UHGV virus genome: UHGV-0246887
Origin: a virus
Reading direction: 5' to 3' (one strand)
DNA: 44,763 nucleotides
Below, piece after piece: positions 4,132 through 22,289 of the stretch. The position numbers and the translations under genes were made by a program. Below the pieces are notes generated by a model, which saw only the letters and a list, made by a program, of their open reading frames with translations, searched no databases and had not been told where the DNA came from. Position 1 is the first letter of the stretch. The number at the start of each line of letters is the position of its first letter.

Positions 4132-5218
4132 TCAATATATGGCGGATCGCATGATCCGCCGTCACATCTTCACCCAGCGCCTGAGCAATGACCAGGCGCG
4201 GAGGGTGCTGGCTATGTGGGAGAAGTTCCGGCCCACGTTACTGGGTAAGCTGACCGAGTTACTTGATGGCAAAAAGTCCATGAATAACAAAGCACTTACC
4301 ACACTGTTAACGCAACTCGACAAGACCGTCAAAACGGAACTGCGCACCGAGTTTAAGGCGTTGGCTGAAAGCCTTCAGGAGTTCGCCGACACCGAGGCTG
4401 ATTATCTCGCCGACACATTAACGGCAGCGATCCAGCCGGTAGTCGCCGTACCGGCGGTCGAGGTGGTTGGCGTAGTGACCGGCGCGCAGATCGCAGCAAC
4501 GGCAATGAAAAACCCGTTCCAGGGTAACACCATGATGCAATGGCCGGATTCACTTTCAGAGTGGACAAGGACGCAGATCGGCAATCAGGTGCGCGCCGGA
4601 TTCATCCAGGGCAAGCCGACTATGGAAATTATCGCGGACGTGAGGCGCGCGCTCGGCGGTCGTAGTGCGCAAGCAATCTCAAGCGTTGTTAAGTCCGCAG
4701 TCAACCACTATGCGGCGACCGCCCGCGAATTAATGGTGAAAGCTAATGACGATATTCTCGAAGGTCGCCAATGGTTGTCCACATTGGACACTCATACTTC
4801 CCCTATGTGCCAGCTACGCGATCGCCTGTTTTATCCTGTTGACGTCACTCCCGACACCAAAGGAAAACGCGGCGGGAAAGTGGTGGCGGGATCACAATAT
4901 GGCGCTGGACCGGGCAAGCTGCATTATTGCTGCCGTTCGACGGAGACGTGGAAAGTCAAAGGTATGGAAGATTGGCCCAGTGGTAAGCGTCCGGCACTGA
5001 AGGCTGACGCAGGCAGATTGCTGAGTGAGCAGGTAGACGCGCAGACTGATTTCTTCTCATGGGTGCAGCGCCAGCCGCGCCATATCCTGGAGGAGTTATA
5101 TGGAGTGCAACGCGCCGACCAGATTATGCGCGGCGTGAAAGTGCCGAAGATGTTTACCGATTCTGGCGAACTGATGACTATTGCGCAGCTTAAAAACCGG
5201 GGGTTATGGCGTGATTAA
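4115..5218 (+). CDS. Head morphogenesis / minor head protein (SPP1 gp7 or Mu F-like)
   Basis: 367 aa ORF overlapping the portal stop; conserved position after portal. Confidence 0.6.
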   Translation: MAKTINQYMADRMIRRHIFTQRLSNDQARRVLAMWEKFRPTLLGKLTELLDGKKSMNNKALTTLLTQLDKTVKTELRTEFKALAESLQEFADTEADYLADTLTAAIQPVVAVPAVEVVGVVTGAQIAATAMKNPFQGNTMMQWPDSLSEWTRTQIGNQVRAGFIQGKPTMEIIADVRRALGGRSAQAISSVVKSAVNHYAATARELMVKANDDILEGRQWLSTLDTHTSPMCQLRDRLFYPVDVTPDTKGKRGGKVVAGSQYGAGPGKLHYCCRSTETWKVKGMEDWPSGKRPALKADAGRLLSEQVDAQTDFFSWVQRQPRHILEELYGVQRADQIMRGVKVPKMFTDSGELMTIAQLKNRGLWRD

Positions 5219-5540
5219 ATATGCAGCAATCGGACTGGTTATCGGTCTGGTGGTAGGATTCTGGCTAGGTGACTCCTATCGTGCTGGCGTAGTGGCGGAG
5301 GCGGCGCAAGAAGCGCAAGCCGAAGCCCAACGGCAGCAAACTAAAGTTATTGAGCGCTCCGTGCAGGCCGAACAAGCCCGCGACGTAGAATACCGGACTA
5401 TAACGAAAGAGGTTGTTAAATATGTTACGCGCCCTAACCGCCCTGATTGTAGTTTTGATGCTGAGCGCGTGCGGATCAAGCAACGTGCCGTTGATGCCGC
5501 TAACGGAGTCGGCACTGCGTCCGCCGTGCAAGTTCGATAA
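5211..5540 (+). CDS. Putative i-spanin (Rz-like), GTG start
   Basis: N-terminal transmembrane helix (IKYAAIGLVIGLVVGFWLG) followed by Ala/Gln/Glu-rich helical region; C-terminal region resembles Rz (ANGVGTASA); contains an embedded out-of-frame lipoprotein gene. Confidence 0.45.
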   Translation: MIKYAAIGLVIGLVVGFWLGDSYRAGVVAEAAQEAQAEAQRQQTKVIERSVQAEQARDVEYRTITKEVVKYVTRPNRPDCSFDAERVRIKQRAVDAANGVGTASAVQVR

Positions 5541-5652
5541 CCCGTCCGCGGACCCCGACGAAGATTTGATGATTGACGTGAAAAATATGGAATGCGGCGC
5601 GAAGCTAAGGGCGCAAGTGCTGGAGTTGCAGCAAATAATTAAGGGGCCGTGA
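5422..5652 (+). CDS. Putative o-spanin (Rz1-like outer-membrane lipoprotein)
   Basis: Signal peptide with lipobox LSAC-G (MLRALTALIVVLMLSACGSS), proline-containing mature part; starts in the +1 frame inside the i-spanin candidate; RBS AAAGAGG. Confidence 0.5.
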   Translation: MLRALTALIVVLMLSACGSSNVPLMPLTESALRPPCKFDNPSADPDEDLMIDVKNMECGAKLRAQVLELQQIIKGP

Positions 5653-5669
5653 TGGCCCCTTTTTCTTTA
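5641..5669. terminator. Bidirectional rho-independent terminator
   Basis: GC hairpin AGGGGCC-gtgat-GGCCCCT followed by TTTTCTTT; lies between convergent genes. Confidence 0.55.
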
Positions 5670-5705
5670 GCGCGGAATGCCGCCACCAATAGGCCGCTTT
5701 GTCAG

Positions 5706-6218
5706 CTACAAACGCCTCGGCATGATAACAAGGAAGGCCCCGCCTTTGAACAGCACACGTGTCGCATTGTCGGCCCCCTGGAATTCCAGTTTTAAGCTCT
5801 CAACCTTACGGTCGAACAATTTAGCAATTTTGCAGGCGTCGGATAGGTATTCCCCTTTAAACCCGATAGCCTCCACTTTAGCGCTGGTGAACGACGAAAC
5901 TCTACGCCAGTCGGGGAATCGGCCGTCTACGTTCTCCATGGGCAGGGTCCCTATTAATACGTCTTTACTATCAAAGAACGCTGCGGAGGTGTCATCTATG
6001 TTGCAGTATTCGAATTTAGTAGGTAAGCGGCCTCTAATTGATACTATTTTACTTTCACCTTCGGGTACAACCGCAGACCCACAGAACAAACGATGTCCGT
6101 CGGAGGCCACGATGAATCCTTTCTCGTCGAAAAATACACCATTCAGATAGTATCGCACGTCATTAGTTGCGGCGCACATCATAGCGGCTTTAAGATCGGC
6201 ATAGTTAACTTTAATCAT
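5706..6218 (-). CDS. Truncated DNA polymerase III beta sliding-clamp (DnaN)-like protein
   Basis: Translation contains DVRYYLNG, IVASDGHRL, VDGRFPDWRRV and C-terminal FLVIMPRRL, matching conserved DnaN segments (domain II start, domain II end, extreme C-terminus) but only about 170 aa; GAGGA RBS before ATG at 6218. Confidence 0.7.
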   Translation of the reverse strand: MIKVNYADLKAAMMCAATNDVRYYLNGVFFDEKGFIVASDGHRLFCGSAVVPEGESKIVSIRGRLPTKFEYCNIDDTSAAFFDSKDVLIGTLPMENVDGRFPDWRRVSSFTSAKVEAIGFKGEYLSDACKIAKLFDRKVESLKLEFQGADNATRVLFKGGAFLVIMPRRL

Positions 6219-6234
6219 TGTCATTTCCTCGTTG

Positions 6235-6266
6235 TTGGTGTGCAACCAATATAGCGCAACCAATTC
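6235..6266 (-). promoter_or_regulatory. Promoter-like region with two ATTGGTTGCA motif copies upstream of the clamp-like gene
   Basis: Minus strand reads TTGCAC-N18-TATATT with motif copies in the spacer and at +1; the same 23-nt string GCTATATTGGTTGCACACCAACA recurs at about 40638. Confidence 0.45.
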
Positions 6267-6366
6267 CAGCAGTGCAAGCGAATTTTGCGATTATTTTTAT
6301 CGCTGATAATATTAAGGCGTGAAGTCAAGCGGGTGGCCCGCTTTGCCACAATCCCAGGGGGATAGC

Positions 6367-17022: not shown

Positions 17023-17630
17023 CCACGTTTAAATTGTACGGCGTCTTAGGGCGTCGTTTTGGTAAAGTGCATAAGCTGGACTGCTTCACACCGGGAGAAG
17101 GCATCACCGGCCTGTGTGTGAAGTTGCCTGGGTTACAAGACTTTTTAATGTCGGCCCACCTGGACAATATGATGTTCAAGGTGCGCAAAGGCAACCACAC
17201 GATGACCGGTTATGATGAGCTTGGCGAGTTCCACGGCAACCGCGTAGTGACCATCGCGCCGGTTATGACGGGGGCAAAAAGCGGACTGGGCCAATTGCTG
17301 GCGGGTGTCGCGATTGTAGTGGCGTCGTTCTATACTGGCGGACTTGCTACTGCCGCTTTCGGGGCTTCGGCTGCAACCGCTGCCGCTATAGGTACGGCTA
17401 CATTTTCGTTCGGCATGTCGCTTGCGCTGGGCGGTGCTATGCAATTGCTGTCCCCACAGCCGAAAGGATTGCAGACAAGGCAGGACGTGGATAACAAAGC
17501 GTCGTACGCGTTCGGCGGGCCAGTGAATACAACAGCGCAAGGCACGGCGCTTGGTGTATTATGGGGCGAGCGTGAGATCGGCGGCGCTATTATTTCAGCC
17601 GGAATAGTAACCGAGGACTTGAACGAATGA
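17013..17630 (+). CDS. Tail assembly protein I-like
   Basis: 205 aa with Gly/Ala-rich hydrophobic C-terminal half; between K-like and J-like genes. Confidence 0.55.
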   Translation: MAMTTFKLYGVLGRRFGKVHKLDCFTPGEGITGLCVKLPGLQDFLMSAHLDNMMFKVRKGNHTMTGYDELGEFHGNRVVTIAPVMTGAKSGLGQLLAGVAIVVASFYTGGLATAAFGASAATAAAIGTATFSFGMSLALGGAMQLLSPQPKGLQTRQDVDNKASYAFGGPVNTTAQGTALGVLWGEREIGGAIISAGIVTEDLNE

Positions 17631-20600
17631 CGATTATCTACGACGTCACGGGCCATAAAGGTGGCGGCGGAAAACAGCACACCCCACAGGAGACGCCAGA
17701 CAGCCTGCATTCGCTGGCTAAAATCCGCATCTTGCTCGCACTGGGCGAAGGGGAGTTCGAAAGTATTACCAGCGCCAGCGAATTGCGGCAGCGTGTATAC
17801 CTGGACGGCACGCCGATCCAGAACGCCGACCTGTCGGAAAACTTCCCCGGCGCGCGCGTGGAGTTCCGCCCAGGCACACAACACCAGGATGTGATCCACG
17901 GATTTTCAGCGGTGGAAAGTGAGCAATCTGTCGGCGTAAAACTGGAAAACGGCACGCCGTGGGTGCGCCAGATTAACGATACCAGTCTGGACGCTGTTCG
18001 CATTCGCATCGGCATTCCAGCCTTGTACACTAACGAAGATAATGGCGACCTGGTGGGCGGGCGCATCGACTATAAGATAGTTGTGTATACGGATAACGCC
18101 GACCCGCGTGAGTTCAGATTCGCCGCCGTTGGTAAAACAATGTCGCTATATGAGCGCGACCACCGCATCGAATTACCTCCGAACGTTAACACCGGCTGGC
18201 GCGTGGAGGTGCACCGCATAACGGCAGACTCCACATCGGCGAAAGTGGTTAATGATATCCAGGTGCAGTCCATCACTGAGATTATTGACGCCCGCCTGCG
18301 TTACCCGCTAACCGCGCTGTTGTTTGTGGAGTTCGACGCCAAAGCGTTCCAGAACATCCCTCGCGTGTCCATTAAGTGCAAAGGTCGCAAAGTTCTAATA
18401 CCGAACAACTACGACCCGATCAATCATACCTATTCCGGGGACTGGGACGGCACGTTTAAACGCGCATGGACGGATAACCCTGCGTGGCACTGGTACGATA
18501 TTTGCATTACTGAGCGCTTCGGCCTCGGTCGGCGTATCAAACCGCAGATGTTAAACCGATATGCGCTTTACCAGATTGCGCAGCGCTGCGATCAACTGGT
18601 AAGCGACGGCAACGGCGGGCAGGAAATCCGATTTAAGAATGATATGTACATCCAGTCTCAGACAGACGCCTGGACCGTGCTTAAGGATTTAGCAGCTATC
18701 TTTGCCGGTATGACCTGGTGGGGCAACCAGATGTTGAATATAGTAAGTGACCAGCCGGTCGCAGCGGTATCGCACACCATCACCAACGCCTCGGTCATTG
18801 ATGGTCGATTTGACTACGCGTCCGGTAGCCAGAAAACTCGGTATTCCACATTCGCGGTAGCATACGGCAACCCGAAGAACCACTATGAAGATGCCATTGC
18901 TACGGGGCAGCGTGTCGAACTGGTACGCCGCCATAAGATTAACCGTCTGGATATAACGGCGATCGGCTGTACGCGTGAGTCAGAAGCGCAACGACGTGGG
19001 CACTGGGCGCTAATCTCCAACCAGCTTGACCAGCAAGTTAGCTTTAAGGTTGGCATGGAGGGTCTTTTCTTTATTCCGGGTAGCGTAGTCGCGATCGCCG
19101 ATACAAACATTTCTGGCGGCTTCGAGACACGCGGCGGTCGCCTGTTGTCGGACCCAGGCACGCGTACCGTGCTTAACACAGACAGCGAAATCACGTTCCG
19201 CCCCGGTGATAAATTCCTGGTGCGCACCGATAGCGGTAATGTGGAGACTCGCGAGATCGCCAGCGTCAACGGCAACAAGGTTACGCTAAAAACCGCACTG
19301 GACGCCGACCCTATTCCAGACCAGCCGTTTTGCGTTGATGGCGACGATATCCAGTTGCAGAAGTTCCGCATCACCGACCTGGAATATGACGACTCTACCA
19401 GCACTTTTTCAGTGCGCGGGATTGAGTACAACGACAGCAAGTATGACGCCGTTGATAATGGCGCGCGCCTTGATCCTGGTATCTTTACGCAAGTTCCTGA
19501 CGGCGTAATGAAGGGGCCGGAATCCGTGACTATCACCCCGTCGCAGATTTCATCGCAAGGCCAGCTAATCACCAACGTGGATATTGTTTTCCCGCCGGTG
19601 AAGGATGCCGTTGTATATGAAATCCAGTGGCGACGCACCAGCTTGCAGAATATGGAAATCCAGTGGGGTAACGACTGGGTGAACATTCCCCGTACGGCTT
19701 CGAACGGTGCGCACATCCCGAACGTGTTTTCCGGCAACTACCAGGCCCGCGTCCGCGCGATCGGTATGGGCGAGATTTCCTCCCCGTGGGTGTCGTCTGC
19801 CATCACGCCGGTGGAAGGTCGTCTCGGCGGTCTTAACGCGCCTATCATCACCAACGCGATTTCGGGCCTTCACCAAATTTTGTGGAAGTGGAACCACAAC
19901 AACGCCGCTACGGATATTTCGTACACCGAGCTTGAAGTGCGTAAGACGGGCGAAACGGAATGGAAGTTCTTAACCAACGTCCCATATCCTGGGTCGGAGT
20001 ATGCGCAAACGTCGCTGGAGTTCGGCATCTATCAGCAGTTGCGCGCCCGTGTAGCGGATAAAATCGGCAACCTATCGGACTGGTCTGCCCCGTTTGAAGG
20101 GCAGGTGAGTGACAATGTTGACGAGTATATGAAGGGGCTTGATGACGAGTTCCTGACTTCCGAAGATGGTAAACGCTTCCAGGAAGCGATCGACACCATG
20201 CCGCAAGGCATTTATGAGGCTATGCTCACCGACGCGCAGCAATTGTTTAACGCCCGCGCCGAGTATAAAGGGATTTATGCGGAAATCACGGTGGCGTATA
20301 ACGTGGCGGCGGACGCGCATAAAGCCGTAGCGCAACTGGAAACGTTGATCGGCACGCGCCTTGATGACGCGGAAGCGGCGATCCACACGTTGCAGACGGC
20401 GCAGAGTACGCAGGAACAAGCGTTTGCCCAGTACCAACAAACTGTTGCCGCTAAGTTCGGGGAACAGGAAGCCGCCATCCAGCAGGTGCAAACGGCAACG
20501 GCAGACGTAGCTGGCGCGCTGGCGGAGTATAAGACCCAGGTAGCGGCACAGTTCGGTCAGCAGTCCGCCGCGATAGAGCAGAAGATGACGTCCTCGTTTA

Positions 20601-21073
20601 ACCACTCCGGTGGTAGCGCCACATACAGCCTTAAGGCTGGCGTGACGTATAACGGGACTTACTACGATGCCGGTATGCAGCTTTCCGTTGTGACGTCGGG
20701 CAGCGCGGTTAAATCGCGTATTTCGTTCAAAGCCGACCAGTTCTATATCATGCACCCATCTAATGGGTCGCTTTCGTCCGCGTTTATCGTTGACGGCGGG
20801 CAGGTGTATATTGACACGGCACGCATCAAGGATGCGTCAATCAACTTTGCGCAGATCACGGACACGCTGCAATCAAATAACTTCGCTTCAGGGTCACGCG
20901 GCTGGCGTATCCTGAAAGGCGGCGCTGCGGAGTTTAACGAAGTAACGGTCCGCGGCAACCTGTACGCCACATCGGGTAACTTCGGATTCTCTGGTGGTAC
21001 CGTGACGATCGACAAGACAGGCGTAAACGTGCCGTTACCTGGCGGGGGGAGGGTGAAAGTAGGGACGTGGTAA
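17627..21073 (+). CDS. Tail tip / host specificity protein J-like (central fiber)
   Basis: 1148 aa, lambda J-like size and position at the end of the tail operon. Confidence 0.8.
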   Translation: MTIIYDVTGHKGGGGKQHTPQETPDSLHSLAKIRILLALGEGEFESITSASELRQRVYLDGTPIQNADLSENFPGARVEFRPGTQHQDVIHGFSAVESEQSVGVKLENGTPWVRQINDTSLDAVRIRIGIPALYTNEDNGDLVGGRIDYKIVVYTDNADPREFRFAAVGKTMSLYERDHRIELPPNVNTGWRVEVHRITADSTSAKVVNDIQVQSITEIIDARLRYPLTALLFVEFDAKAFQNIPRVSIKCKGRKVLIPNNYDPINHTYSGDWDGTFKRAWTDNPAWHWYDICITERFGLGRRIKPQMLNRYALYQIAQRCDQLVSDGNGGQEIRFKNDMYIQSQTDAWTVLKDLAAIFAGMTWWGNQMLNIVSDQPVAAVSHTITNASVIDGRFDYASGSQKTRYSTFAVAYGNPKNHYEDAIATGQRVELVRRHKINRLDITAIGCTRESEAQRRGHWALISNQLDQQVSFKVGMEGLFFIPGSVVAIADTNISGGFETRGGRLLSDPGTRTVLNTDSEITFRPGDKFLVRTDSGNVETREIASVNGNKVTLKTALDADPIPDQPFCVDGDDIQLQKFRITDLEYDDSTSTFSVRGIEYNDSKYDAVDNGARLDPGIFTQVPDGVMKGPESVTITPSQISSQGQLITNVDIVFPPVKDAVVYEIQWRRTSLQNMEIQWGNDWVNIPRTASNGAHIPNVFSGNYQARVRAIGMGEISSPWVSSAITPVEGRLGGLNAPIITNAISGLHQILWKWNHNNAATDISYTELEVRKTGETEWKFLTNVPYPGSEYAQTSLEFGIYQQLRARVADKIGNLSDWSAPFEGQVSDNVDEYMKGLDDEFLTSEDGKRFQEAIDTMPQGIYEAMLTDAQQLFNARAEYKGIYAEITVAYNVAADAHKAVAQLETLIGTRLDDAEAAIHTLQTAQSTQEQAFAQYQQTVAAKFGEQEAAIQQVQTATADVAGALAEYKTQVAAQFGQQSAAIEQKMTSSFNHSGGSATYSLKAGVTYNGTYYDAGMQLSVVTSGSAVKSRISFKADQFYIMHPSNGSLSSAFIVDGGQVYIDTARIKDASINFAQITDTLQSNNFASGSRGWRILKGGAAEFNEVTVRGNLYATSGNFGFSGGTVTIDKTGVNVPLPGGGRVKVGTW

Positions 21074-21079
21074 ATGAGA

Positions 21080-21101
21080 AGGGGCCATCCGGCCCCTTTT
21101 T
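21080..21101. terminator. Bidirectional terminator between J-like gene and convergent minus-strand gene
   Basis: GGGGCC-atcc-GGCCCC followed by TTTTT. Confidence 0.65.
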
Positions 21102-22074
21102 AATACATATTCGGGATGACGAGTAGCGGGGTAGGTACGGCAATATTTTTACCTGGCATCTGGAATTGCCGCCGTGAGTAGTTGCCGATGACGCGGTTTT
21201 TAGCGACGCGCACATTATTACCCGCCATACGTATACCGTTCATGCGGACGTGGTTATAGCCCCCGTTGTTCTGAATCAGCGCGCCGGTGTATGAAAGCTG
21301 GATTAGGCTATTTCCGATATTTTGGTCGCCTGTGCCGATGTTAATCGTGCGGTCATATACGAACGGCTTGTTCACTGTCGAGAACGTGACCTGATTCTGG
21401 TTATTCGTCATGGTGATCCCGGCCCCTGGCGTTGGCGGTGTATTGTTGAATATTACCAGGTCCATGTCCACCGAAGCCGCCACATCGTCGATGCCTCCGT
21501 AGGACGCGTTGCGGACGATAATACTGCCACCATCGAAGCCTACTGATACGTTTCCGTCATCCCAGCGGGCGAACGGGACACCGCTAACAGGCAATGCCAT
21601 ACTCCCGTTGACGCGCACGCGCTTCGCGTATCTACAGGTCATCAGCTTAGACACGTTGGATATGGCGGTGAAGTCCGTCGAGTTAGCCACCAGTAAACCC
21701 GCGTTACGCGACCCAACCGGCAGCACTTCCATTATGACGCCCGCCCATTGTGGTAAACCGGAGTATGCGCCATACGCATCCTCACCGCGCAGGGTGATTC
21801 CACTATTACCGTTGCGAGTAACCGACGTGACGTAAAACGGATCTGGTATTACCAGGGTCTGGTCGAACACTTCAAACACCTCTACCGGGCGAGTGAGCGC
21901 GACGATGACCTGCGACCCATCCGTAAGCGGGGTATTAATGGTTAGTGTCTTGTTGGACTGTGCCCGCTGGTTAAAGCTGGTGCAGTATGACGGCGCGCGG
22001 AGTCCGGCGGTAATCTCCATTACCGGCCTTCCGTCGTTATAGTCGATAAGTATTCCAGCGCCCATTATTACCAC
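21100..22074 (-). CDS. Putative receptor-binding protein (encoded opposite to tail operon)
   Basis: 324 aa Gly/Asn/Thr-rich beta-type sequence; reverse orientation directly downstream of J and coupled to a lipoprotein gene, as in T5-like RBP/llp loci. Confidence 0.4.
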   Translation of the reverse strand: MVIMGAGILIDYNDGRPVMEITAGLRAPSYCTSFNQRAQSNKTLTINTPLTDGSQVIVALTRPVEVFEVFDQTLVIPDPFYVTSVTRNGNSGITLRGEDAYGAYSGLPQWAGVIMEVLPVGSRNAGLLVANSTDFTAISNVSKLMTCRYAKRVRVNGSMALPVSGVPFARWDDGNVSVGFDGGSIIVRNASYGGIDDVAASVDMDLVIFNNTPPTPGAGITMTNNQNQVTFSTVNKPFVYDRTINIGTGDQNIGNSLIQLSYTGALIQNNGGYNHVRMNGIRMAGNNVRVAKNRVIGNYSRRQFQMPGKNIAVPTPLLVIPNMY

Positions 22075-22289
22075 TCCCGTGATTTAACTGATACTGTGCC
22101 TGAGAAATTGCCGTCGCTATCTGAAGACAGCCCCGTGAATCGCATGTCCACATCTCCTGCCGGGACTTTTTGCCCATCAACGTAGCGCAACATGCAGCTA
22201 CCGTAAGCAACCGTAATGCAATCGCCGTTGTTGCGATCTGCGGCGCAACCGGACAAAAGAACCGCACAAATCATAATTAAAGTTTTCAT
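22068..22289 (-). CDS. Small outer-membrane lipoprotein, candidate superinfection-exclusion factor (Llp/Cor-like)
   Basis: MKTLIMICAVLLSGC signal peptide with lipobox; 73 aa; AGGGGA RBS; stop overlaps start of the RBP candidate. Confidence 0.55.
   Translation of the reverse strand: MKTLIMICAVLLSGCAADRNNGDCITVAYGSCMLRYVDGQKVPAGDVDMRFTGLSSDSDGNFSGTVSVKSREW

Follow-up and report, generated by a model that had tools for sequence, protein, structure and literature searches.

A probable two-component spanin of the overlapped Jersey family in the head-gene region of a Dhillonvirus-type coliphage genome

The overlapped gene pair at 5211–5652

The window analysed here, a stretch of 44,763 nt, is ~94% identical to Shigella phage EP23 and, judged from its sequence, is a Dhillonvirus coliphage (an HK578/EP23-like siphophage of E. 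coli). We examined two plus-strand genes at 5211–5652, which were found between the head-morphogenesis and scaffold genes, in agreement with a first-pass annotation that had placed them in the head-gene region. The overlapped Rz/Rz1-type arrangement proposed there was recovered, with both open reading frames (ORFs), the transmembrane (TM) segment, the lipobox and the overlap all present.

The upstream gene (5211–5540) starts with GTG and encodes a 109-aa Rz-like protein (i-spanin), with a predicted N-terminal TM helix at residues ~4–20 and a predicted helical domain in the periplasm. The hydrophobic stretch is IKYAAIGLVIGLVVGFWLG, with a maximum Kyte–Doolittle 15-residue mean of 2.49, so that sequence and hydropathy bore out the TM anchor assigned earlier to this product. 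Beyond this segment the protein is hydrophilic (31% charged residues), and its single conserved cysteine, Cys80, was invariant in 18 of 18 Dhillonvirus sequences. A Pfam scan gave no significant match for the i-spanin, the o-spanin or the holins, nor was any match to lambda Rz seen in it; spanins and holins were then assigned to families via PHROGs, where the i-spanin matched phrog_2536, ‘Rz-like spanin’ (E=3.7e-36). A single-sequence AlphaFold2 model of low confidence (pLDDT 65.4) placed a helix at residues 4–72, a loop at 73–83 and a second helix at 84–97, in agreement with the two helices and linker published for the ‘EP23 to SO-1’ i-spanin subfamily (Kongari et al. 2018, PMC6139136). This model and the published predictions for relatives tentatively suggest a helical or coiled-coil periplasmic domain. 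An in-frame TTG at 5181 was considered a less likely start: no Shine-Dalgarno sequence accompanies it, homologous proteins have N-termini that line up with translation from the GTG, and annotated relatives all use GTG.

The downstream gene (5422–5652) lies in the +1 frame and overlaps the 3′ end of the i-spanin gene. Its ATG is preceded at a distance of 9 nt by a Shine-Dalgarno sequence, AAAGAGG (5406–5412), which sits within the i-spanin coding sequence and was present in 18/18 relatives. The 76-aa Rz1-like precursor (o-spanin) carries the signal peptide MLRALTALIVVLMLSAC and, as judged by pattern and hydropathy, a lipobox, LSAC, that ends in Cys17 and is followed by Gly at +2; across the 18 relatives the lipobox reads L[ST]AC. 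Cys17 is the predicted lipidation site, and Gly rather than Asp at +2 is compatible with sorting to the outer membrane. The mature protein would comprise 60 aa with 7 prolines, and its Cys36 and Cys58, spaced 22 residues apart, were again invariant in all 18. PHROG comparison matched it to phrog_5672 (E=2.4e-26) and phrog_1267 (E=9.5e-12). We found that the two genes share 119 nt and that the o-spanin gene extends 112 nt beyond the i-spanin stop, and the pair is thus overlapped, not embedded. The description of an embedded +1-frame lipoprotein was accordingly right as to frame and lipobox and wrong as to embedding. In some relatives a 102-aa i-spanin variant reduces the overlap to 98 nt.

The lysis cassette on the circular map

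Two holin genes and an endolysin gene form the lysis cassette, all on the plus strand. The holins comprise 96 aa (42728–43018; phrog_2359 holin, E=8.5e-32) and 81 aa (43015–43260; phrog_2508 holin, E=2.8e-27), and the endolysin (43247–43738) is a 163-aa protein of the lysozyme family (PF00959, E=1.8e-20; phrog_7) without an N-terminal hydrophobic segment. The first-pass annotation had put the spanins ~37 kb from these genes, a distance that holds in window coordinates only. When the window ends were joined, a 380-aa ORF was completed across 44763 and 1, and no direct terminal repeat of 10–400 nt was found at the ends; the window is a closed genome linearised at an arbitrary point. In 10 contigs of relatives that are cut elsewhere, the lysis cassette and packaging genes were seen directly to be contiguous on one strand, in the order holin, holin, endolysin, (exonuclease), TerS, TerL, portal, head morphogenesis, spanins. 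The figure of 37 kb is therefore an artefact of the arbitrary cut, which falls between the lysis cassette and the spanins. Measured around the circle, 6,235 nt (~6.2 kb on a circular or concatemeric genome) separate the endolysin stop from the i-spanin start, which follows it on the same strand. Seven ORFs occupy this interval (orf53, a small TM ORF, an exonuclease-like gene, TerS, TerL, portal and head morphogenesis). The earlier suggestion that the lysis genes are split across the genome holds in that the spanins are unlinked from the holin–endolysin cassette; the separation is far shorter than supposed, and the layout is the conserved norm. Holins, endolysin and spanins thus do not form one contiguous cassette in this genome, and adjacency to holin and endolysin is not a defining feature of spanins. 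The same separation is seen in vB_EcoS_P78, where genes 31 and 32 encode the holins, gene 33 the endolysin and gene 40 the spanin.

The genome was also searched for other spanins. A genome-wide lipobox scan, the ORF lists and PHROG scans of the ORFs flanking the endolysin revealed no second spanin or u-spanin, which upheld the earlier statement that none lies beside the holin and endolysin genes. Candidates considered and set aside were orf53 (phrog_11068, function unknown), which is acidic and has no TM segment; a 32-aa TM peptide that matches no family and has no spanin features; and a 108-aa membrane protein upstream (phrog_2531, function unknown), likewise without spanin features. Lipobox matches at 4746, 32254 and 35922 were treated as spurious because they fall in alternative frames within larger genes. 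One other credible lipoprotein was found genome-wide, at 22068–22289 on the minus strand; it lacks the C-terminal TM segment of a u-spanin. The pair at 5211–5652 is the sole spanin candidate of the genome.

Family membership and alternative functions

With high probability, we consider the pair to be a Dhillonvirus two-component spanin belonging to the overlapped ‘Jersey’ family, a reading that takes in its expression, position and mechanism. The pair, its family and its overlapped architecture are already known, having been published in 2018: Kongari et al. (PMC6139136) placed EP23, HK578, JL1, SSL-2009a, SO-1 and EK99P-1 in the overlapped Jersey i-spanin and o-spanin families and described two constant o-spanin cysteines 22 residues apart, which correspond to Cys36 and Cys58 of the window protein. 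The i-spanin and o-spanin are 93% and 99% identical to those of EP23, with sizes (109/76 aa), +1 overlap and GTG start shared; the position after the head-morphogenesis gene is common to the EP23-to-SO-1 subfamily, and only allelic differences (a few substitutions) set the window pair apart. The annotations of relatives agree with the assignment: the RefSeq record of EP23 names an ‘Rz-like spanin’ and the TheodorHerzl record ‘i-spanin/o-spanin’, and the same names appear in the feature lists of SO-1 and EK99P-1.

More distant homologues were found in Jerseyvirus vB_SenS_S528 and the Kagunavirus-like Bas70, in which overlapped genes for phrog_2536 and phrog_5672 proteins (38–48% identity) lie between head-morphogenesis/decoration genes and the scaffold gene. 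Homologous holins (phrog_2359 and phrog_2508) are present in Jerseyvirus SeF1. These relatives differ in having a longer i-spanin (~127 aa) with Q-rich stretches and extra small genes between the head-morphogenesis gene and the spanins, and the published overlap in Jersey is larger (155 nt). The split layout is the conserved norm across the Dhillonvirus and Guernseyvirinae genomes examined (S528 and Bas70 among the latter), and SeF1 has it as well according to the literature. A literature search found no published experimental test, by complementation or deletion, of any Jersey-family spanin.

Among well-known systems, the pair resembles lambda Rz/Rz1 in combining a type II inner-membrane protein with an outer-membrane lipoprotein encoded +1 in the same DNA, in the periplasmic cysteines of both proteins and in its presumed role in disrupting the outer membrane after endolysin action. 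In lambda, too, the terminase genes come just after the lysis cassette when the map is closed into a circle. Lambda Rz1, however, is encoded entirely within Rz, and both genes come straight after R, whereas the window pair is overlapped and found 6.2 kb further on, past the packaging and portal genes. Spanin genes unlinked from holin and endolysin are known from other phages. The T7 pair 18.5/18.7 is located among packaging genes, flanked by the terminase genes 18 and 19. The T4 pair pseT.3/pseT.2 is likewise placed away from holin and endolysin (PMC6139136). The sequence families of both are unrelated to the window pair, and the T4 pair is of the separated type and the T7 pair embedded.

Both ORFs are short and without Pfam matches, and many public records call them ‘hypothetical protein’ or miss the full o-spanin, as might be expected if one or both were chance frames, for example if the i-spanin sequence happened to generate the lipoprotein frame, or vice versa. 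Such an origin is vanishingly improbable. Both ORFs were intact in 18/18 Dhillonvirus sequences, all of which kept the start codons, Shine-Dalgarno sequences, lipobox and cysteines. In the non-overlapping parts pN/pS was 0.16 for the i-spanin and 0.13 for the o-spanin, as against 1.2–4.5 in out-of-frame controls, and in the doubly coding overlap the synonymous rate was ~3-fold lower, with a fall in both frames; by these measures both reading frames are under purifying selection. Furthermore, both proteins recurred at 32–48% identity, always paired, in Jerseyvirus, Kagunavirus-like and lambdoid-like contigs.

The position of the pair raises a different question, namely whether it serves a non-lytic envelope function such as superinfection exclusion, membrane tethering of head assembly or help in DNA entry. 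Its location between head-morphogenesis and scaffold genes, the presumed translational coupling to the former and the recurrence of this position throughout Dhillonvirus, as well as in the Jerseyvirus and Kagunavirus-like genomes compared, would all fit such a function. We nevertheless regard it as very unlikely, and the ‘another envelope function’ offered by the first-pass annotation found no support. In a lambdoid-like contig (L022) the gene order is holin (phrog_198), holin (phrog_217), endolysin (phrog_181), i-spanin and overlapped o-spanin; the i-spanin, directly after the endolysin, belongs to phrog_2536 (E=8e-43) and is 39% identical to that of the window, and the o-spanin is 32% identical. 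More distant i-spanins with a ‘TITKEVVKY’ motif lie beside an endolysin or a holin-like small membrane ORF in two further contigs (L024 and L025). In addition, the two proteins are like spanins in architecture, cysteines and size, no further spanin was recognised in the genome although a Gram-negative host normally requires one, and the minus-strand lipoprotein at 22068–22289 is a better candidate for exclusion.

Expression and proposed role in lysis

Translation of the i-spanin gene may be coupled to that of the head-morphogenesis gene. At the junction (5199–5218, plus strand) a Shine-Dalgarno-like GGGGG run (5199–5203) precedes the GTG at 5211, which overlaps the head-morphogenesis TAA stop (5216–5218) within GTGATTAA, and both this motif and the G-run were kept in 18/18 relatives. 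Terminator-like and promoter-like elements bracket the block from TerS to the spanins. At its downstream end, a hairpin with a T-run at 5641–5661 (−17.9 kcal/mol, z=−2.3; plus strand) takes its 5′ arm from the final codons of the o-spanin gene and can fold on either strand; it was kept in 18/18 relatives, its stem shows a compensatory A–T to G–C change, and it marks the end of the conserved block, with variable sequence downstream. Just upstream of TerS, a terminator-like hairpin (553–573) is followed by an extended −10-like element, TGTTATAAT (584–592), recognised by consensus match only. Both were present in 11/11 contigs; in the divergent L018 the hairpin has another sequence and TGATATAAT stands at the −10. 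We take the plus-strand region 553–592 as the putative start of a TerS-to-spanin transcription unit and, because such conserved elements flank the block, we infer that the spanins are probably the last cistron pair of a late operon.

A further terminator-like hairpin (43922–43943, plus strand; −19.1 kcal/mol, z=−4.6) follows the small ORF after the endolysin, suggesting that the lysis cassette and the spanins are separate transcription units unless read-through occurs. With this hairpin and that at 553–573 both between endolysin and spanins, co-regulation with holin and endolysin is no more than a possibility. One long antiterminated late transcript covering holins, endolysin and spanins, as from lambda pR′, is possible though unlikely. 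The genes are on one strand and contiguous on the circle, and just before the holin (42684–42727) an extended −10-like element, TGATATAGT, is followed by a strong hairpin and T-run, an arrangement resembling lambda pR′–tR′. Against this are the two further terminator-like hairpins and the conserved promoter-like element before TerS, and no antiterminator was identified in the window genome. A single transcript would alter the regulation of the genes and not their identity.

By analogy with lambda Rz/Rz1, the N-terminal helix of the i-spanin would anchor it in the inner membrane with its helical domain reaching into the periplasm, and the o-spanin would receive its lipid at Cys17 and be delivered to the outer membrane. 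The C-terminal regions of the two proteins may bind each other through the peptidoglycan mesh, and homodimers may be linked by disulfides between the conserved periplasmic cysteines. After removal of the cell wall by the holin pair and the lysozyme-type endolysin (42728–43738), the spanin complexes would be free to collapse, and by fusing or disrupting the outer membrane they would complete lysis. The genes, outside the holin–endolysin cassette, would be expressed as the final cistron pair of a late unit of ~5.1 kb (extended −10 at ~584–592, TerS, TerL, portal, head morphogenesis, i-spanin, o-spanin and terminator at 5641–5661), with i-spanin translation coupled through the GTGATTAA overlap. 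In the circular or concatemeric form present during replication, the genome would carry this unit immediately after the lysis cassette.

The finding contributes little in the way of new biology, as several public records of close relatives already annotate the pair. Many records, though, miss or truncate the o-spanin, with loss of the lipoprotein signal on truncation, or swap the i and o labels, and corrected starts are advisable when Dhillonvirus/Jerseyvirus phages are engineered or lysis genes are mined. Distances on linearised phage genome maps can be artefacts, as here, where the lysis cassette and packaging genes are neighbours across the cut.

In each Dhillonvirus examined, the i-spanin start and the head-morphogenesis stop overlap, and the position of the pair is similar in the Jerseyvirus and Kagunavirus-like genomes. 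It is conceivable, if decidedly doubtful, that placing the spanins as last cistrons of a packaging, portal and head-morphogenesis unit is adaptive; the alternative is a frozen accident. Were it adaptive, the placement could make the amount or timing of spanin depend on capsid assembly and not on the holin clock, or it could mark a recombination boundary beside a hypervariable moron slot.

An overlapped spanin pair of the Jersey family

Both ORFs were found at the exact coordinates proposed by the first-pass annotation, which had described a membrane-anchored protein with an embedded lipoprotein gene. The i-spanin ORF (5211-5540, +) has a GTG start and encodes 109 aa, with a hydrophobic N-terminus (IKYAAIGLVIGLVVGFWLG; Kyte-Doolittle 15-residue maximum 2.49) followed by an 88-residue domain, 31% of whose residues are charged and whose only cysteine is at position 80. 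The o-spanin ORF (5422-5652, +; 76 aa) lies in the +1 frame relative to the i-spanin and carries a signal peptide (MLRALTALIVVLMLSAC) with the lipobox LSAC, Cys17 and a glycine at +2; the mature protein has 60 residues, including seven prolines and, besides Cys17, cysteines 36 and 58. Because the two ORFs overlap by 119 nt and the o-spanin extends 112 nt beyond the i-spanin end, the pair belongs to the 'overlapped' class and not to the 'embedded' one. The i-spanin GTG is preceded by a G-run (5199-5203, +) and overlaps the TAA stop of the upstream head-morphogenesis gene inside GTGATTAA, and the o-spanin ribosome-binding site, AAAGAGG, is located 9 nt 5' of the ATG.

The spanin region shared ~94% identity with Shigella phage EP23 and with Escherichia phage TheodorHerzl, and matched 158 phage records, nearly all Escherichia/Shigella phages of the genus Dhillonvirus. 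Comparison with related phages, proposed earlier as a check, gave spanin names in several records: 'Rz-like spanin' for both genes in the EP23 RefSeq record, 'i-spanin' and 'o-spanin' in TheodorHerzl, and the same names in the SO-1 and EK99P-1 feature lists. The i-spanin matched phrog_2536 ('Rz-like spanin', E=3.7e-36) and the o-spanin matched phrog_5672 (E=2.4e-26) and phrog_1267 (E=9.5e-12); a Pfam scan returned no match for either. EP23, HK578, JL1, SSL-2009a, SO-1 and EK99P-1 are assigned to the overlapped 'Jersey' family by Kongari et al. 2018 (PMC6139136), in the i-spanin table as well as the o-spanin table; there, the i-spanin subfamily 'EP23 to SO-1' is described as two helices with a short linker and Jersey o-spanins have two constant cysteines (alignment positions 45 and 67), whose 22-residue spacing equals that of Cys36 and Cys58. 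A single-sequence AlphaFold2 model of the i-spanin (pLDDT 65, low confidence), with helix 4-72, a loop at 73-83 containing Cys80 and helix 84-97, is consistent with this description. Collectively, the PHROGs families, the annotated relatives and the Jersey-family listing indicated that the Rz/Rz1-type assignment was correct; the pair is nothing new in kind.

The o-spanin is frequently misannotated in public records. In EP23 RefSeq (L001 4908-5066) and Bas70 (L004 5839-5982) the start is ~24-35 codons too late, so that the signal peptide and lipobox are lost, and in S528 (L003 6751-7134 and 7103-7246) the i-spanin is labelled 'o-spanin'. Upstream translation recovered the lipoboxes LNGC (S528) and LSAC (Bas70). 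The phrog_5672 profile has 47 positions only and covers only o-spanin residues 32-76, and so was apparently derived from truncated gene calls.

The 442-nt spanin segment was compared between the window and 17 Dhillonvirus loci (15 of them in IMG/VR contigs and the other 2 in annotated records), giving a gap-free alignment of 17 distinct sequences. Both ORFs were intact in 18/18, with the GTGATTAA junction and both ribosome-binding sites unchanged and the lipobox (as L[ST]AC), i-spanin Cys80 and o-spanin Cys36/Cys58 all kept. The pN/pS ratio was 0.16 in the i-only part (i frame; pS 0.29) and 0.13 in the o-only part (o frame; pS 0.34), against 1.2-4.5 for the wrong frames of these parts, where pS is not informative. 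In the overlap it was 0.52 (i frame) and 0.57 (o frame), with pS values of 0.10 and 0.12. This ~threefold drop in pS relative to the single-coding parts is what would be expected under double coding. The intact frames and the substitution patterns show the ORFs to be more than chance reading frames.

Distance to the lysis cassette

The pair had been placed ~37 kb from holin 1 (42728-43018, +), holin 2 (43015-43260, +) and the endolysin (43247-43738, +), a figure that proved to be a linearisation artefact. Joining 44763 to 1 yields an uninterrupted 380-aa ORF that runs from an ATG at 44154 to the stop at 532 (+) and matches phrog_704 'DNA repair exonuclease' (E=4e-161); its product has an N-terminal HTH as well as the metallophosphoesterase motifs GDxxD and GNHD. 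Since the window ends fall within one gene, the window is a closed genome with an arbitrary cut point. On the circular map 6,235 nt separate the endolysin stop (43738) from the i-spanin start, which lies downstream on the same strand. Contiguity was seen directly in ten IMG/VR Dhillonvirus contigs with other cut sites, which share the order holin1, holin2, endolysin, orf53, (exonuclease-like gene), TerS, TerL, portal, head morphogenesis, i-spanin, o-spanin, with 5.1-6.9 kb between endolysin and i-spanin. The gene numbers described for vB_EcoS_P78 fit this layout: 31/32 for the holins, 33 for the endolysin and 40 for the spanin. Of the genes between lysis and packaging, the exonuclease-like gene varies most: identity to relatives is 63-81%, and two loci, L009 and L013, had no match.

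As in lambda, the terminase genes follow closely downstream of the lysis cassette. The packaging/portal block is all that splits the Dhillonvirus lysis genes: of the claimed remoteness, the 6.2-kb gap and the embedding among head genes stand, whereas the bulk of the distance came from the cut site. This separation is a known, conserved layout of the phage group. Unlinked spanins have a precedent in T7. T4 provides another (PMC6139136).

The earlier statement that no spanin adjoins the cassette held, as the ORFs flanking the endolysin had no spanin features; these are a 108-aa membrane protein upstream (phrog_2531, a family of unknown function), orf53 (53 aa, acidic, no TM; phrog_11068) and a 32-aa TM peptide with no match. 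A genome-wide lipobox scan gave one credible lipoprotein besides the o-spanin, a 73-aa protein (MKTLIMICAVLLSGC...) at 22068-22289 (-), which was rejected as a spanin for want of a C-terminal TM. It matched phrog_4281 and, weakly, phrog_1119 (Cor superinfection exclusion; E=8e-4); it adjoins the tail genes and has the look of an exclusion-type lipoprotein. Next to it, 21100-22074 (-) encodes a 324-aa 'membrane protein' moron (phrog_1265); the two genes lie antisense among the tail genes, just after the long ORF 17627-21073, and probably form a receptor-blocking or exclusion module.

Transcription of the TerS-to-spanin block

TerS is preceded by a terminator-like hairpin (553-573, +) and then an extended -10 element (584-592, +; TGTTATAAT), both kept in 11/11 contigs, including the divergent L018, in which the hairpin sequence differs and the -10 reads TGATATAAT. 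From TerS through the o-spanin, every gene either overlaps its neighbour or lies close to it. A hairpin with a T-run (5641-5661, +), whose 5' arm is formed by the last o-spanin codons, is kept in 18/18 relatives, and the genomes diverge downstream of it. From this conserved start signal, gene packing and conserved end signal we infer a separate late unit. The rival reading, a single antiterminated late transcript from just upstream of the holin, draws on an extended -10-like TGATATAGT followed at once by a strong hairpin (within 42684-42727, +; 12 bp plus T-run, -22.7 kcal/mol, z=-7.1) ending 5 nt before the holin ATG. This recalls lambda pR'-tR', a late promoter and a terminator needing antitermination; the hairpin could alternatively be the terminator of the upstream gene.

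Several further features were observed. The outer base pair of the 5641-5661 stem shows compensatory covariation (A-T vs G-C) that largely tracks a Lys/Arg polymorphism at o-spanin residue 74 (IIKGP vs IIRGP), so the last o-spanin codons encode both protein and terminator structure. The holin ATG has no obvious Shine-Dalgarno sequence. After the post-endolysin terminator there is a promoter-like site, TTGACT-18-CATACT (43952-43981, +), and then a tiny ORF (44011-44091, +) for a single-TM peptide, MARKDIWVLAIWTTAAFIGMVICELL, with no PHROG match. The interval 5662-6318, from the o-spanin terminator to the scaffold gene, is a hypervariable antisense slot, as are its equivalents in EP23 RefSeq (L001) and loci L005-L019; in relatives it spans 0.6-1.4 kb with often unrelated content. 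In the window it holds a 185-aa gene (5706-6263, -) of phrog_3007, labelled 'RusA-like resolvase' or 'DNA polymerase III beta subunit' depending on the record. The protein matched Pfam DNA_pol3_beta_2 only at E=0.002, and the label looks unreliable.

Function and placement of the family

The lambda Rz/Rz1 paradigm is well established. By analogy, the i-spanin would be a type II inner-membrane protein and the o-spanin an outer-membrane lipoprotein, binding each other across the periplasm through their C-terminal regions as disulfide-linked homodimers. The peptidoglycan mesh would restrain them until cleared by the holins and endolysin, whereupon the freed spanins may fuse or disrupt the outer membrane.

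Homologues of both proteins (~38-48% identity) occur in several hundred further phage records, mostly Salmonella/Escherichia phages, three of which were examined in detail: one Jerseyvirus, one Kagunavirus-like phage and Jerseyvirus SeF1, the last from the literature. These Guernseyvirinae all have the split layout. In Jerseyvirus S528 and in the Kagunavirus-like Bas70 the pair is flanked by the head-morphogenesis/decoration genes on one side and the scaffold gene on the other. SeF1 has the same families and split layout as the window, with spanins phrog_2536/5672 (genes 9/10) and holins phrog_2359/2508 (genes 63/64). L022, a lambdoid-like contig, encodes in succession two holins (phrog_198, then phrog_217), an endolysin (phrog_181), an i-spanin and an overlapped o-spanin. 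Its i-spanin, directly 3' of the endolysin, matched phrog_2536 (E=8e-43) and is 39% identical to that of the window (BLASTP 6e-19); the o-spanins are 32% identical (2e-12). In L024 and L025, more distant i-spanins with the TITKEVVKY motif have as neighbour either an endolysin or a small membrane ORF resembling a holin. Gene association thus ties the spanin family to lysis. The first-pass annotation had offered either lysis genes split across the genome or another envelope function; the former stands, and the family's place beside the endolysin in L022 speaks against the latter. The position of the spanins among the head genes in Dhillonvirus and Guernseyvirinae is a relocation shared across the lineage and does not point to another function.
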